Below are positions 21,254-25,671 of a stretch of DNA of 31,111 nucleotides, in pieces. Each line of letters starts with the position of its first letter. The first letter of the stretch is position 1. The DNA comes from a virus. Its lineage: Duplodnaviria; Heunggongvirae; Uroviricota; Caudoviricetes. The DNA is taken from IMG/VR virus record IMGVR_UViG_2563366800_000008. The stretch is one strand, 5' to 3'. The notes beneath the pieces are model-generated. The model searched no databases, was not told the origin of the DNA, and was given only the letters and a program-made list of their open reading frames with translations. The translations under genes and the position numbers were made by a program.

Positions 21254-21422
21254 GCCATCACGGGCGGGCCTGCTCGTTCGTAAGGCTGATGGCAGTCACC
21301 TTGCCGCTGATGGCGAGACGCTGCCGGTCAATGCGTACTGGCTGCGCCGTGAAAAAGAAGGCGATGTGAATATCACTGAGCCACCGAAGTCCCGCACACC
21401 TAAAACCGATAAGGAGGCATGA
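21234..21422 (+). CDS. Small Mu gp38-like protein
   Basis: 62-aa ORF with AGAAGGA upstream; immediately precedes the sheath gene. Confidence 0.5.
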   Translation: MTKKMIKPSRAGLLVRKADGSHLAADGETLPVNAYWLRREKEGDVNITEPPKSRTPKTDKEA

Positions 21423-22900
21423 TGTCCATCGGTAATATTCCTGATGATATTCGTGTCCCGCTGGTCTGGATCGATATCGATAACTCTATGGCGATGAGTG
21501 CCGCGCCGGCACAGTCCCGAAAAATTCTGGTTGTGGGTCAGCAGCTCGCCAGCGCGACTGCTTTACCGTTGACGCTGAACCGTATTACTGGCGACAGCAT
21601 GGCTGATGAACTCTATGGCCGTGGCTCCATGCTGGGTGAAATGGCAAAGATGGTCCGTATGGCCAACAGTTACACCGAGATGTATGCGATGGGACTGGAA
21701 GATATTGCCCAGGGTGCCGCGGCGAGTGCCACAGTCACGATGCTCGGCACCGCCACTCAGGCTGGTACGCTGGCACTGATGATCAATGGCGTATCTGTCC
21801 AGGTCGGGGTCAGCATCGGTGATGAAGCGGCAACCATTGCCGGCAATATCATCGCTGCAATTACCGCAAAGCCTGCCACTCAGGTTACTGCCACAGCAAA
21901 AGCTGAAGCTGCTGCAACGGTAGTGCTGACCGTGAAGTGGAAAGGCGTCACGGGAAATGACAGTGATGTGCGCCTGAACTATTACGCCGGAGAAAAAACA
22001 CCTGCCGGCATCAGTGCAACACTGACCGCATTTTCGGGTGGTACGGGGACGCCGGATATTCAGTCTGTTGTCGCGGCGCTGGGAGATGACTGGTACACGG
22101 ATATCATCTTCCCGTACCTCGATGCCCAGAGCCTGAACACCATTCGTGACGAACTGCTGGAACGCTGGGGGCCGCTCAAGATGATGGAGGCGCTGTTGTG
22201 GTCTGCTTATCGCGGAACACATGCCCAGAGCGGAACATTCGGACATACCCGCAATGACTGGCTGATTTCCTGTATCGGCACCAACATCGCACCTGAACCG
22301 TCATGGATGTGGGCCGCCAGCTACGGTGCAACGGCGGCATACCAGCTTGCCATAGATCCGGCCCGTCCTCTCCAGACTCTGATCCTGACAGGCATCAAGC
22401 CCCCCGCTCGCGGTATCCGCTGGGATATGCCAGAGCGTAACCTGCTGTTGCATGACGGTATCGCCACGCACTTTGTTGATGCCGGAGATAACGTCTGTAT
22501 TGAGCGCGAAATCACCATGTACCGCGTAAACCGCTATGGCGATACGGACATTTCATACCTCGATGTGCAGTCGCCAGCAACGCTTGGCCGTATCCGTTAT
22601 GTCATCAAAAACCGTTTCACCAGTCGCTACCCACGCCACAAGCTGGCGGGTGATGACGTGCTTGATTTGCTCGATGCCGGTCAGCCAGTCATGACGCCAA
22701 AAATCTGTCGGGCTGAGTTACTGGATATTGCGCTGACTGAGCTTATCCCGGCAGGTCTGGTGGAGGATTTCGAAGATTATAAAGACACGCTTGATGTCAC
22801 CATCGACAGCAAAGACCCAAACCGTCTGAACTTTATCTGCCACCCGAATCTGGTGAATCAGTTGCGCGTTCTGGCCGGTCTCATCCAGTTCAAACTTTAA
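21419..22900 (+). CDS. Contractile tail sheath protein (Mu L family)
   Basis: 493-aa ORF followed directly by a small tube-like gene, the sheath/tube pair of myovirus tails. Confidence 0.85.
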   Translation: MMSIGNIPDDIRVPLVWIDIDNSMAMSAAPAQSRKILVVGQQLASATALPLTLNRITGDSMADELYGRGSMLGEMAKMVRMANSYTEMYAMGLEDIAQGAAASATVTMLGTATQAGTLALMINGVSVQVGVSIGDEAATIAGNIIAAITAKPATQVTATAKAEAAATVVLTVKWKGVTGNDSDVRLNYYAGEKTPAGISATLTAFSGGTGTPDIQSVVAALGDDWYTDIIFPYLDAQSLNTIRDELLERWGPLKMMEALLWSAYRGTHAQSGTFGHTRNDWLISCIGTNIAPEPSWMWAASYGATAAYQLAIDPARPLQTLILTGIKPPARGIRWDMPERNLLLHDGIATHFVDAGDNVCIEREITMYRVNRYGDTDISYLDVQSPATLGRIRYVIKNRFTSRYPRHKLAGDDVLDLLDAGQPVMTPKICRAELLDIALTELIPAGLVEDFEDYKDTLDVTIDSKDPNRLNFICHPNLVNQLRVLAGLIQFKL

Positions 22901-22909
22901 GGAACCAGC

Positions 22910-23266
22910 ATGGCAAATATTCTGGGTATGGCGGCGATTCGTATTAATGGCCGTGAAATCAAAACTGAAGGCAAGTCCACCCTGAATCCGGGTGGCTATG
23001 CCCGCCAGCAACACATGGGCGGCGGTAAGGTCTGGGGGAATTCCCGCAAGATGGCTGCCCCCTCCATCAAACTGACCATTGCAGCGGATCGTGACGTTGA
23101 TGTGATTGAAATCAGTAACTGGGAGGACGTGACCGTCATGTTCTACGGTGACAACGGCCTCAACTACATGATGACCGGCGCGGCCACCGATAACCCGGCT
23201 GAACTGGACGAAGACGCGGGGACAGTTTCGGCTAACTTCATCGGCGTCAAGTGTGTGAAGGTGTAA
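22910..23266 (+). CDS. Tail tube protein (Mu M family)
   Basis: 118-aa ORF after the sheath gene, AAGGA upstream. Confidence 0.8.
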   Translation: MANILGMAAIRINGREIKTEGKSTLNPGGYARQQHMGGGKVWGNSRKMAAPSIKLTIAADRDVDVIEISNWEDVTVMFYGDNGLNYMMTGAATDNPAELDEDAGTVSANFIGVKCVKV

Positions 23267-23269
23267 GAC

Positions 23270-23665
23270 ATGGCTGAACTGACATTCCCTCTGGTACACG
23301 GTCTGCGCACCGGCAAAGGTACTACCGACGAAATGCTTCACAAGGATGTGACGCTACGCGAGCTGACATCACGGGATGTTATCGAATCACAACTGGCCTC
23401 CGAGCGCGTTGTGATTGGGGATAACGGCAAGGCGGTTGCCTACTGCTCTGAGGTCATGATGGGTCTGGAGATGATGCGCCGGCAGATTAAGAAGATTGGA
23501 GAAATCCCCGGCCCGCTGGACATGAATCAAATTTATGCCCTGCATCCGGAAGATTTGAAGTTGCTGACAGAAAAGGGTCAGGCGATGGATGACATGCTGG
23601 GGGAGACTGCCGAACGGGGGCGACATGATGCCGATGGCAGCGGCGCTCAATCTACTGCTGATTAA
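23270..23665 (+). CDS. Tail assembly chaperone
   Basis: 131-aa ORF between the tube and tape-measure genes, the conserved chaperone position. Confidence 0.65.
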   Translation: MAELTFPLVHGLRTGKGTTDEMLHKDVTLRELTSRDVIESQLASERVVIGDNGKAVAYCSEVMMGLEMMRRQIKKIGEIPGPLDMNQIYALHPEDLKLLTEKGQAMDDMLGETAERGRHDADGSGAQSTAD

Positions 23666-23774
23666 CCTCTCTCAGCGTTTCGATGTTAACCGGCTTGAGC
23701 AACTGCCCCTACGGCAGTTGCTTATTCAGGTCAGGCAACTGAGGAAGCAATATGACAAACCGCCTAAGCACTGA
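23589..23774 (+). CDS. Possible frameshift extension of the tail assembly chaperone
   Basis: ORF in the +1 frame overlapping the chaperone's last 77 nt and ending just inside the tape-measure gene; G-runs at 23600-23605 and 23615-23620 lie in the overlap. Confidence 0.3.
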   Translation: MTCWGRLPNGGDMMPMAAALNLLLINLSQRFDVNRLEQLPLRQLLIQVRQLRKQYDKPPKH

Positions 23775-25671
23775 AATTCTGATTAACCTTGCCGGGAACC
23801 TGACGGCTAAAGCCCGCCAGTACGGCGCTAACATGAGCGAGTTTGCCAGCCGTAACCAGAAAGCAATGTCTGTTGTTAAGGCCGCGTCTGAATCTGCCGG
23901 ACGTGGTCTGGACATGCTCAGTAATCGCTATACAACGATGATTGCCGGCCTTGCCAGCGGCGCAGCGCTGAGAGAATTTGCTAAAACAGATCGACAATTA
24001 ACCGGGCTGGGTATTGCCGCCGGTAAAACTCGTGATGAGATGCGCAATATCTTTGATGGTATTCAGGATACCGCCATCAAATTCCGGGTGGATGACTCGG
24101 AGGTGTTGGCCGCACTGGAGAATGTCAACAAAACGACCGGTGATCTGGATTTCGGTATTCAGAATAAGGGCATGATAGCCGCCTCTATCGCTGCATCAGG
24201 CTCTCAGGGGGATTCGATTGGCGGACTGTTTTCTCAGTTCCCCAAATTTGGTCTTCAGACTGAAAAGCAGACGCTTGCAGCTATGGACACGTTAAACCTT
24301 CTGGGAAAAGAAGGCGCATTTGAGCTGAAAGACATTGCAGAAAAAGGCGTCAGAGCCTTCTCTATGTACTCCGCTGCTGGCGGGAGTGGCGTTAAGGGAG
24401 TCAAAGACGTAGGCGTTGTACTGGAATCAGCCATTGATGCCACAGGCAACCGTGATACAGCAGCCACGGCGACTGAAAACCTTATTCGTGATCTGCAGTT
24501 GCCAAAGGTTGTTAGCACCCTTCGAAAGAATGGTGTCAACGTTTATGACAAAGATGGGAAGATGCGATCACTTCCAACACTCCTGGAGGAAATCGCTAAA
24601 AAATCAGGGAGTAAAGGTTCTGAGAAACAGAATAAAAGACTCCTGGAAGCCGGTTTTAACCAGGACAGTATTTTACTTATCAGCAGTGCCACCTCTGGTA
24701 AAGGAGCAGAAAACCTCAAGCGATACCAGTCAGTTGTCGGGGACGGCACAGGCATCATGAAAGATGCTGAATATGCGGCGAAAGATTTTACTTCGGCACT
24801 GACCAGCCTGAATGTTACCTGGAAGAAGTTTTCTAACAGCAATCTTGCCGGCCCGGTACAGGACCTGGCTGATGCTATCAATTCAGTTGATCAAAAGACG
24901 GTTCAGAACTGGCTGGAAGTCGGCAAGAAAATAGCCATTGCGACCGCTGGAGTCATTGCGGCACGTAAAGCATTTAAAATTGGTAAAGGTGCATGGGAGT
25001 TTCTCCAGCCAGAAAAAGGCGGAAAAGGCATCCCTAAAGGCGTCTCCGATGTTTTTGGCTCCGGTGTTATGCCCGTTTATGTCGTGAACATGGGCAAAGG
25101 TGGGATGGGGGGGCCGGGTGATTTAATCCCCGATGGACCTGATGGAAAAAATCCCCGTAAACCTAATAGTCCCAGACGTCCTGGCAGCCCACAGGAAATG
25201 GTCGGCCTGACCATGCTGGCGTCAACTATTCCATACCTTTATGAAGAACCATCACTGAGCAGTGATGACAAAGCTGGCATGGTTCAGTGGGCAAAGGATC
25301 GTGCCAAACGCAAAGCAAATGAGAAACCGGTTATTGACCCGCGCCCGTGGGCATCACTGACCCCGGCGACGCCGTTCATTCCTGCGGCTGAAAATCCCCC
25401 GGCAGACAGACCGCGCCCTGAAACGAGTGATCATTCTTTGTTTGGTGTCATCGTTGATTTTCTGCGTGGCACCAACGCCGCAATTGAAAACAAAAACGCG
25501 TTTGATAAGCCTGTTCAGCCACCTGCATTACCCACAACCCTACAGAAAATGCAGGGTGAAATCCGCGTGATCCTTGAGGGTGGCGGTGGCCGTGTTAAAA
25601 GCGTCACCATGAACCAGCCGGATATCAAACTTAGTGCATCTGCTGGCGTGTCCAGCGTGGAGCAAGGCTGA
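23752..25671 (+). CDS. Tail tape measure protein
   Basis: 639-aa ORF after the chaperone; long helical Ala-rich N-terminal region and Gly/Pro-rich C-terminal part. Confidence 0.85.
   Translation: MTNRLSTEILINLAGNLTAKARQYGANMSEFASRNQKAMSVVKAASESAGRGLDMLSNRYTTMIAGLASGAALREFAKTDRQLTGLGIAAGKTRDEMRNIFDGIQDTAIKFRVDDSEVLAALENVNKTTGDLDFGIQNKGMIAASIAASGSQGDSIGGLFSQFPKFGLQTEKQTLAAMDTLNLLGKEGAFELKDIAEKGVRAFSMYSAAGGSGVKGVKDVGVVLESAIDATGNRDTAATATENLIRDLQLPKVVSTLRKNGVNVYDKDGKMRSLPTLLEEIAKKSGSKGSEKQNKRLLEAGFNQDSILLISSATSGKGAENLKRYQSVVGDGTGIMKDAEYAAKDFTSALTSLNVTWKKFSNSNLAGPVQDLADAINSVDQKTVQNWLEVGKKIAIATAGVIAARKAFKIGKGAWEFLQPEKGGKGIPKGVSDVFGSGVMPVYVVNMGKGGMGGPGDLIPDGPDGKNPRKPNSPRRPGSPQEMVGLTMLASTIPYLYEEPSLSSDDKAGMVQWAKDRAKRKANEKPVIDPRPWASLTPATPFIPAAENPPADRPRPETSDHSLFGVIVDFLRGTNAAIENKNAFDKPVQPPALPTTLQKMQGEIRVILEGGGGRVKSVTMNQPDIKLSASAGVSSVEQG

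Follow-up and report, generated by a model that had tools for sequence, protein, structure and literature searches.

A Putative −2 Ribosomal Frameshift of the Phage Mu Type in the Tail Assembly Chaperone Gene of a Mu-Like Prophage

Frameshifting in Phage Tail Assembly Chaperone Genes

Ribosomal frameshifting in the −2 direction is rare. Xu, Hendrix and Duda reportedly described in 2004 a −2 programmed ribosomal frameshift in the tail assembly chaperone gene 41/41.5 of phage Mu. In the GenBank record of Mu (AF083977), the entry Mu_56 is a two-piece joined CDS named "tail assembly chaperone" and bears the note "verified −2 translational frameshift in PMID 15469818", and Mu stands among the −2 cases in a published list (PMC5009743). 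A further paper describes for Mu a tandem −2 slip on GG GGG CGA, the A-site tRNA-Arg (anticodon ICG) pairing better in the −2 than in the −1 frame (PMC3458567), and another, which likewise gives the direction as −2, puts the efficiency of the Mu shift at ~2.2% (PMC3498833). Neither the mechanism nor its presence in the Mu family is new, both having been known since 2004; the prophage described here is another member of this family and leaves the understanding of the mechanism unchanged.

The chaperone gene of the prophage is homologous to Mu gene 41 (Mu_41/Mu_56; family PF23746), with 42% identity over 89% of the query in tblastn, and like it lies between the tube and the tape-measure genes. 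Both genes contain the identical GAA CGG GGG CGA in phase, both are followed by a 50-codon extension in the −2 frame, and a downstream RNA structure is detectable in neither. The two loci differ in the zero-frame tail past the site (13 residues here, 6 in Mu) and in the end of the extension, which overlaps the start of the tape-measure gene here and lies 14 nt before that start in Mu. The extension sequences are weakly similar, and ATG codons just past the site are found in the clade of the prophage whereas Mu has none. It should be noted, too, that the fusion protein has been verified experimentally in Mu but is predicted from the sequence here.

In phage lambda, gpG and gpGT likewise begin at the same start codon, the shorter being nested in the longer, and their coding region lies between the gene for the major tail (tube) protein and that for the tape measure; just a small percentage of the product is the long form and neither protein is found in the virion, which for the prophage would hold by analogy. 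A division of labour has been proposed for lambda, the N-terminal part binding the tape measure and the extension binding the tube subunit (PMC5009743). Unlike the prophage, for which a −2 shift without a heptamer leading to the extension is proposed, lambda shifts by −1 on G_GGA_AAG; moreover, lambda gpG has no detectable sequence homology to the chaperone described here, and the tail is here contractile. The pair gpE/gpE+E′ of phage P2 also serves a contractile tail and has a Pfam family (PF10109, Phage_TAC_7, "E, or 41 or 14") in common with the present chaperone, and no downstream stimulatory hairpin has been reported for P2 (PMC3091744). P2, however, uses TTTTTTG with a −1 shift, in contrast to GG_GGG_CGA with a −2 shift here, and a T-run or A-run of six is absent from the chaperone gene of the prophage.

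The Prophage and Its Chaperone Gene

The stretch of DNA that was analysed (31,111 nt, in the following called the window) is by its gene content a nearly complete Mu-like transposable prophage. It has early and regulatory genes (a c-repressor-like gene, MuA transposase, MuB, Gam, GemA and Mor), genes for lysis and the head (endolysin, gp27, terminase, Mu portal, F, I, T capsid protein, gp36 and gp37) and, on the + strand, a tail module in the order sheath, tube, chaperone, tape measure and gp43-, gp44-, gp45-, gp46-, gp47- and gp48-like baseplate genes (Table 1). The position of the chaperone gene between the tail tube and the tape-measure genes is that of a Mu-like contractile-tail module. 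At the left end, the first ORF (1–1128, − strand) encodes a host-type PAS-GGDEF diguanylate cyclase and adjoins the repressor-like gene of the prophage (1507–2106, − strand), which has a Mu DNA-binding domain. Since the listed start of this ORF is merely the first TTG after a stop codon, the Mu-like element may have inserted in or beside the diguanylate cyclase gene.

The chaperone scores 121 bits with PF23746 (Gp41_Mu; cutoff 27), matches PF10109 weakly (27.6 bits, cutoff 25) and matches phrog_508, "tail assembly chaperone". A preliminary description of the locus had drawn attention to a second ORF in the +1 (= −2) frame, which overlaps the last 77 nt of the chaperone gene and ends just inside the tape-measure gene. 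All its coordinates hold: the ORF has 61 amino acids and extends from ATG 23589 to TGA 23772–23774, going 23 nt past the start of the tape-measure gene at ATG 23752. The ATG at 23589, however, plays no role: the −2 frame is open from 23568 to 23774, and both frames are open together over 98 nt. Taken by itself, this geometry is unremarkable, stop-free +1-frame runs of at least 68 codons having a frequency of 7% in the genes of the window. Likewise, the octamer GGGGGCGA within the overlap is expected 1.07 times per window and was observed once, a count that alone is not significant. What raises the finding far above chance are the relatives, in which the position, the phase and the conservation of the octamer come together with a conserved length and a coding signature of the downstream frame.

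Table 1. Features of the tail module and of the proposed frameshift, in window coordinates; the slash marks the predicted junction.
Feature	Position	Strand	Basis
Sheath gene	21419-22900	+	Gene order of the tail module
Tail tube gene, upstream neighbour of the chaperone gene	22910..23266	+	PF10618 Tail_tube, E 1.4e-38; "phage tail tube protein" on identical E. coli sequence
Tail assembly chaperone, zero-frame product, 131 aa, analogue of Mu gp41 and lambda gpG	23270..23665	+	PF23746 Gp41_Mu, E 2.2e-35
TGA closing the −2 frame upstream; 5′ limit of any productive shift	23565..23567	+	Frame reading
Slip site CGG_GGG_CGA, CGGGGGCGA, codons 116-118, R-G-R	23615..23623	+	Identical to Mu, same phase
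−2-frame extension, 50 codons + TGA, analogue of Mu gp41.5 and lambda T: DMMPMAAALNLLLINLSQRFDVNRLEQLPLRQLLIQVRQLRKQYDKPPKH	23622..23774	+	Open frame, conservation, wobble signature
Predicted fusion, 168 aa, ...GETAERGR/DMMPMAAAL...	join(23270..23623, 23622..23774)	+	Inferred from the Mu_56 annotation and the identical site
Tape-measure gene (TMP)	23752..25671	+	PF10145 PhageMin_Tail, E 1e-13; same start in RefSeq on identical E. coli sequence

The Proposed −2 Shift

The most probable reading of the locus, to which we assign a probability of roughly 85%, is a programmed −2 ribosomal frameshift of the phage Mu gp41/gp41.5 type. The preliminary description had suspected a programmed frameshift of the G/GT type, a view that is supported by the homology to Gp41_Mu and by the presence, in the same phase, of the CGG_GGG_CGA verified in Mu. 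The comparison with Mu-family chaperones that it had suggested shows that the 12 nt GAA CGG GGG CGA (GAACGGGGGCGA, 23612–23623) are identical in Mu gene 41 and are read in the same phase; Mu has ...CAA GAA CGG GGG CGA GTG... and the window ...GCC GAA CGG GGG CGA CAT... at this place. The octamer GG_GGG_CGA (23616–23623) is in phase 0 and lies, measured from site to stop, 47 nt ahead of the stop codon of the chaperone gene. A full-text literature search for GGGGGCGA returned unrelated papers only.

Most ribosomes would read the chaperone gene to its stop codon at 23665 and thus make the 131-aa protein. A small fraction would slip two bases back with GGG (23618–23620) in the P site and CGA (23621–23623) in the A site, the tRNA-Gly re-pairing with GGG at 23616–23618 and the tRNA-Arg (anticodon ICG) with GGC at 23619–23621. 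Decoding would then restart at GAC (23622) and continue to the TGA at 23772–23774, so that the fusion would consist of the first 118 residues of the chaperone and a new tail of 50 residues. For this prophage the slippage, its −2 direction and an efficiency of ~2% would be carried over from Mu by homology. If lambda gpG/gpGT is a guide, both forms would bind or coat the tape-measure protein with the N-terminal part that they have in common, and the tail tube protein would be recruited by the extension, which only the rare long form has. Tail assembly would require that the long form be made in a constant and low proportion to the short one, and neither form would stay in the virion.

Two G-runs in the overlap had been named as possible slip sites, the first at 23599–23603 within CTGGGGGAG and the second at 23616–23620 within CGGGGGCGA. 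The second stands, being the same as in Mu and conserved. The first (CTG_GGG_GAG, 23597–23605, + strand) was rejected, as it is not conserved, the first two positions of its middle codon having an entropy of ~1.5 bits, and as in many relatives it is cut off from the octamer by a stop codon in the −2 frame. Indeed, just 6–15 nt (9 nt in Mu) separate the second G-run of many relatives from the last −2-frame stop codon ahead of it, so that the extension frame can be entered there at the octamer only.

As to direction, the preliminary description had expected +1 or −2 rather than the usual −1, and this is borne out: the extension is in the +1/−2 frame, and the −1 frame closes one codon past the site, here and in most loci, which rejects a −1 shift at the octamer. 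A search for canonical −1 heptamers (X_XXY_YYZ) found as the sole in-phase one A_AAG_GGT at 23572, which was rejected because it meets a stop codon in the −1 frame after six codons.

Conservation of the Slip Site

In all, 111 loci were compared: Mu, the Klebsiella phage Kp4866-3, 24 contigs from bacterial genomes, 80 IMG/VR contigs and five divergent phages. [quoted passage not shown] The four exceptions were considered as alternative designs and discarded: in L016 and L018 the octamer lies behind an upstream indel, and in L022 and L024 the run is one G shorter and the frames are fused. A second scan, in which divergent homologues were the seeds and which met some contigs of the first set again, found the in-phase octamer in 54 of 66 unique loci.

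The site is held much more tightly than its surroundings. For example, between ten divergent lineages with 44–64% GC (from Escherichia, Vibrio, Shewanella, Pasteurella, Alteromonadaceae, Kistimonas and Endozoicomonas) pairwise nucleotide identity averages 98% over the 9-nt site but 39% over the 32 nt before it and 38% over the 33 nt after it. Within a set of 77 distinct sequences that share 60% identity or more with the chaperone of the window, the entropy is ~0 bits over the nine bases CGGGGGCGA and 1.8–1.9 bits at the wobble positions of the three preceding codons. In the octamer-bearing loci R-G-R is always spelled NGG GGG CGA, for which the probability given R-G-R is 0.0016 with the codon usage of the window, where NGG, GGG and CGA are rare (18%, 14% and 7% of their codon families). 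The sole variation in the 9-nt site is C or A at its first base (CGG or AGG, of the six Arg codons), which is the only position not needed for a −2 slip.

A sub-lineage of 11 unique loci, 43–54% identical to Mu gp41, has NNG_GGG_CGA instead, with AAG, TCG or GAG before GGG and thus a run of four G's (IMG/VR contigs L135–L138, L140, L142, L143, L149, L153 and L158/L159). Its members still have a Mu-like extension in the −2/+1 frame, of 45–51 codons and ending at the ATG of the tape-measure gene. Therefore, the first G of the run is not strictly required, and the invariant core is G_GGG_CGA. In L143, L149 and L153 the zero-frame stop codon TAG follows directly after CGA (G_GGG_CGA_TAG).

Copies with one G fewer (CGGGGCGA) were encountered in Erwinia tracheiphila ICMP 5845 (L022, at ~2835), in Kluyvera genomosp. 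3 YDC799 (L024, at ~2835) and in a Logan contig (protein P0041). They read the chaperone and the extension as a single in-frame protein and thus display the fusion sequence directly; P0041 and L022 encode the same fusion as the one predicted here. In L024 the frame is disrupted a second time within the extension, which has KGARNGPF in place of the KGGPEWAL of relatives. These copies are either homopolymer sequencing errors or decaying prophages.

The −2-Frame Extension

The extension is 46–54 codons long in every relative and lineage, and in most relatives its stop codon overlaps the start of the tape-measure gene by 8–35 nt; the part of the zero frame that follows CGA, by contrast, has anything from 1 to 13 codons. 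Both the downstream frame and its length are conserved. Before the site, mean entropy is highest at the third codon position of the zero frame (1.33 bits). Past the site, the maximum falls on the first position of the zero-frame codons, which in the −2 frame is the third (1.02 vs. 0.32 bits). The peak of wobble variability thus moves to the −2 frame at the site, which indicates that the coding signature changes frame there, and by this signature the extension is under protein-coding selection.

The extension matches phrog_38797 ("unknown function") with E 2e-20; no family in NCBIfam or Pfam was matched. It aligns co-linearly with the extension of Mu, with a common LPL(R/S)xL motif (LPLxxL) at the same position; the two profiles score weakly against each other (hhalign E 7e-4, probability 26%), and the identity in the multiple alignment is 13%. 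A search for solved structures of the fusion found none, and gp41 is unresolved in the cryo-EM paper on Mu.

Alternative Explanations

The extension frame would also be reached by a +1 shift, in which the P-site tRNA-Gly slips forward from GGG to GGC while CGA is waiting in the A site, giving a 167-aa fusion that lacks Arg118 (...ERG/DMMPM...). Shifts of +1 and −2 cannot be told apart from DNA alone, as both lead to the same frame, and the NNG_GGG_CGA loci, which keep the extension although re-pairing of tRNA-Gly two bases back is weakened in them, speak somewhat for +1. The −2 direction is nevertheless favoured because the identical site is recorded as verified −2 in Mu, and because the two G's before GGG, which are useless for a +1 shift, are needed for the tRNA-Gly to re-pair two bases back and are kept in 107 of 107 octamer-bearing loci through the use of only CGG and AGG. 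In enterobacteria, moreover, CGA is read by an abundant tRNA, which makes a pause at a hungry codon less likely. We therefore hold a +1 shift to be very unlikely. The two directions would differ in the protein: the junction ...GR/DMMPMAAAL... of the −2 shift would yield the tryptic peptide DMMPMAAALNLLLINLSQR, and the +1 shift GDMMPMAAALNLLLINLSQR.

Alternatively, there could be no frameshift but a separate small gene starting at ATG 23625, 23628 or 23634, with the G-run as Shine-Dalgarno sequence and a free peptide of 46–49 amino acids as product. The predicted pairing of the G-run with the anti-Shine-Dalgarno sequence (−8.6 to −9.0 kcal/mol) is stronger than that of 94% of the gene starts in the window, and the three ATG codons in the −2 frame lie 4, 7 and 13 nt downstream of the G-run (window 23616–23636). 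In E. coli RM11911 the equivalent ATG was taken by PGAP as the start of a "hypothetical protein" of 45 amino acids, and a stand-alone PHROG (38797) exists for the peptide. A plain Shine-Dalgarno sequence, however, needs neither a phase lock with the upstream gene nor exactly GGGGGCGA in lineages whose flanks are 38% identical, and in Mu the fusion is the verified product. Nor is the start codon conserved. It is ACG in the group of L008, L059 and L067 and absent in Mu, L023, L020, L021, L107 and L110, and in Mu, L023, L107, L110 and L008 the −2 frame has no start codon near the site at all. With the start codon lacking in close relatives (ACG), in Mu and in the relatives from Vibrio, Shewanella and Kistimonas, a free peptide cannot be the conserved mechanism. 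In addition, the −2-frame residue before the common ATG is hydrophobic in all lineages, which suggests that translation in the −2 frame is already under way at this point. An internal start in place of the −2 frameshift is accordingly given little chance.

The ATG at +12 is common to most of the enterobacterial clade; Klebsiella-type loci have GTG there, the L008 group has no start codon at this position and Mu has none. Within the enterobacterial clade it is conceivable, if rather doubtful, that the extension would be made both as the −2 fusion and as a free peptide of ~47 amino acids from the ATG codons 4–13 nt past the G-run, the run of five G's doubling as Shine-Dalgarno sequence. If this were true, the ratio of short, long and free form would be set by one octamer, which is undescribed for Mu, a phage that lacks those ATG codons.

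Slippage of the RNA polymerase on the run of five G's, with one G lost or two gained, would give a minority of mRNAs with fused frames. There is a homopolymer at the junction, and the contigs with one G fewer (P0041, L022 and L024) show that such a loss yields the in-frame fusion. Productive sites of this kind are known, however, to be longer runs, usually of seven or more A or T (PMC5009743), the Mu case is described as ribosomal (PMC3458567; PMC5009743), and the invariant CGA past the run and the fixed phase of the run would be left without explanation, all of which makes transcriptional slippage highly improbable as the source of the fusion. That the overlapping frame is open by chance and has no product is, the frequency of long open +1-frame runs in the window and the expectation of about one octamer per window notwithstanding, effectively refuted by the sequence comparisons, in which the length of the extension is conserved in all relatives, the wobble signature switches to the extension frame exactly at the site, the octamer is kept in otherwise unalignable lineages and a PHROG family is matched.

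Annotation of the Extension

The −2 fusion is missing from current annotations. For example, a stretch of 531 nt is identical in E. coli ECONIH4 (L112, NZ_CP026399), where RefSeq has the 131-aa chaperone and the tape-measure gene only, without a fusion, and is blank over the stretch that equals 23666–23751. In a 70%-identical prophage of E. coli RM11911 the hypothetical protein called by PGAP from an internal ATG occupies L113 1159–1296. PHROG 38797 is the frameshift extension. As the extension is thus unannotated, "hypothetical" or of "unknown function", a protein is missing from the gene lists of these Mu-like prophages, and it is one that is probably essential for tail assembly. The main value of the finding is therefore in the annotation of Mu-like prophages. 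Beyond this, many natural instances are added to a rare class of frameshifts, and the comparison brings out the tight conservation of the octamer among the Mu-like phages of gamma-proteobacteria.

RNA Structure Downstream of the Slip Site

Folds downstream of the site in the window are no more stable than those of shuffled sequences (z = +0.29 for 42 nt, +0.62 for 76 nt and −0.17 for 77 nt), and the same is true of hairpins starting 3–9 nt past the site in a constrained scan (z = +0.43). The consensus fold of the clade has just an invariant GCCG...CGGC hairpin of 4–5 bp without compensatory changes, a search of Rfam gave no matches, and the downstream fold of Mu is also insignificant (z = +0.2). 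Stimulatory structures are rarely found at the frameshift sites of phage tail genes (PMC3091744). The lack of a detectable structure fits a shift of low efficiency that is driven by the slippery sequence alone.

In the window the small hairpin, GCCG(N7)CGGC, occupies 23630–23644, at a distance of 6 nt downstream of the slip site, and does not vary within the enterobacterial clade. In the same clade all three codon positions are nearly frozen from +14 to +31 past the site, which can be explained by dual coding, MPLA(A/T)AL in the −2 frame lying over DAAGDG in the zero frame, so that a structure is not needed to account for it.

Some marine Mu-like phages have very stable stem-loops that start 4–5 nt past GG_GGG_CGA and that have no counterpart in the window or in Mu. 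In the Shewanella phage vB_SspM_MuM16-2 (L107 1845–1910) the stem-loop has −32.3 kcal/mol (z = −4.5) and in the Vibrio phage 1.028.O (L110 1859–1926) −34.3 kcal/mol (z = −7.1), with 0 of 200 shuffles as stable in either case; those in L108 and L021 are weaker. These stem-loops could be lineage-specific 3′ stimulators with a short spacer, an arrangement that has been linked to −2 rather than −1 shifting (PMC3458567).
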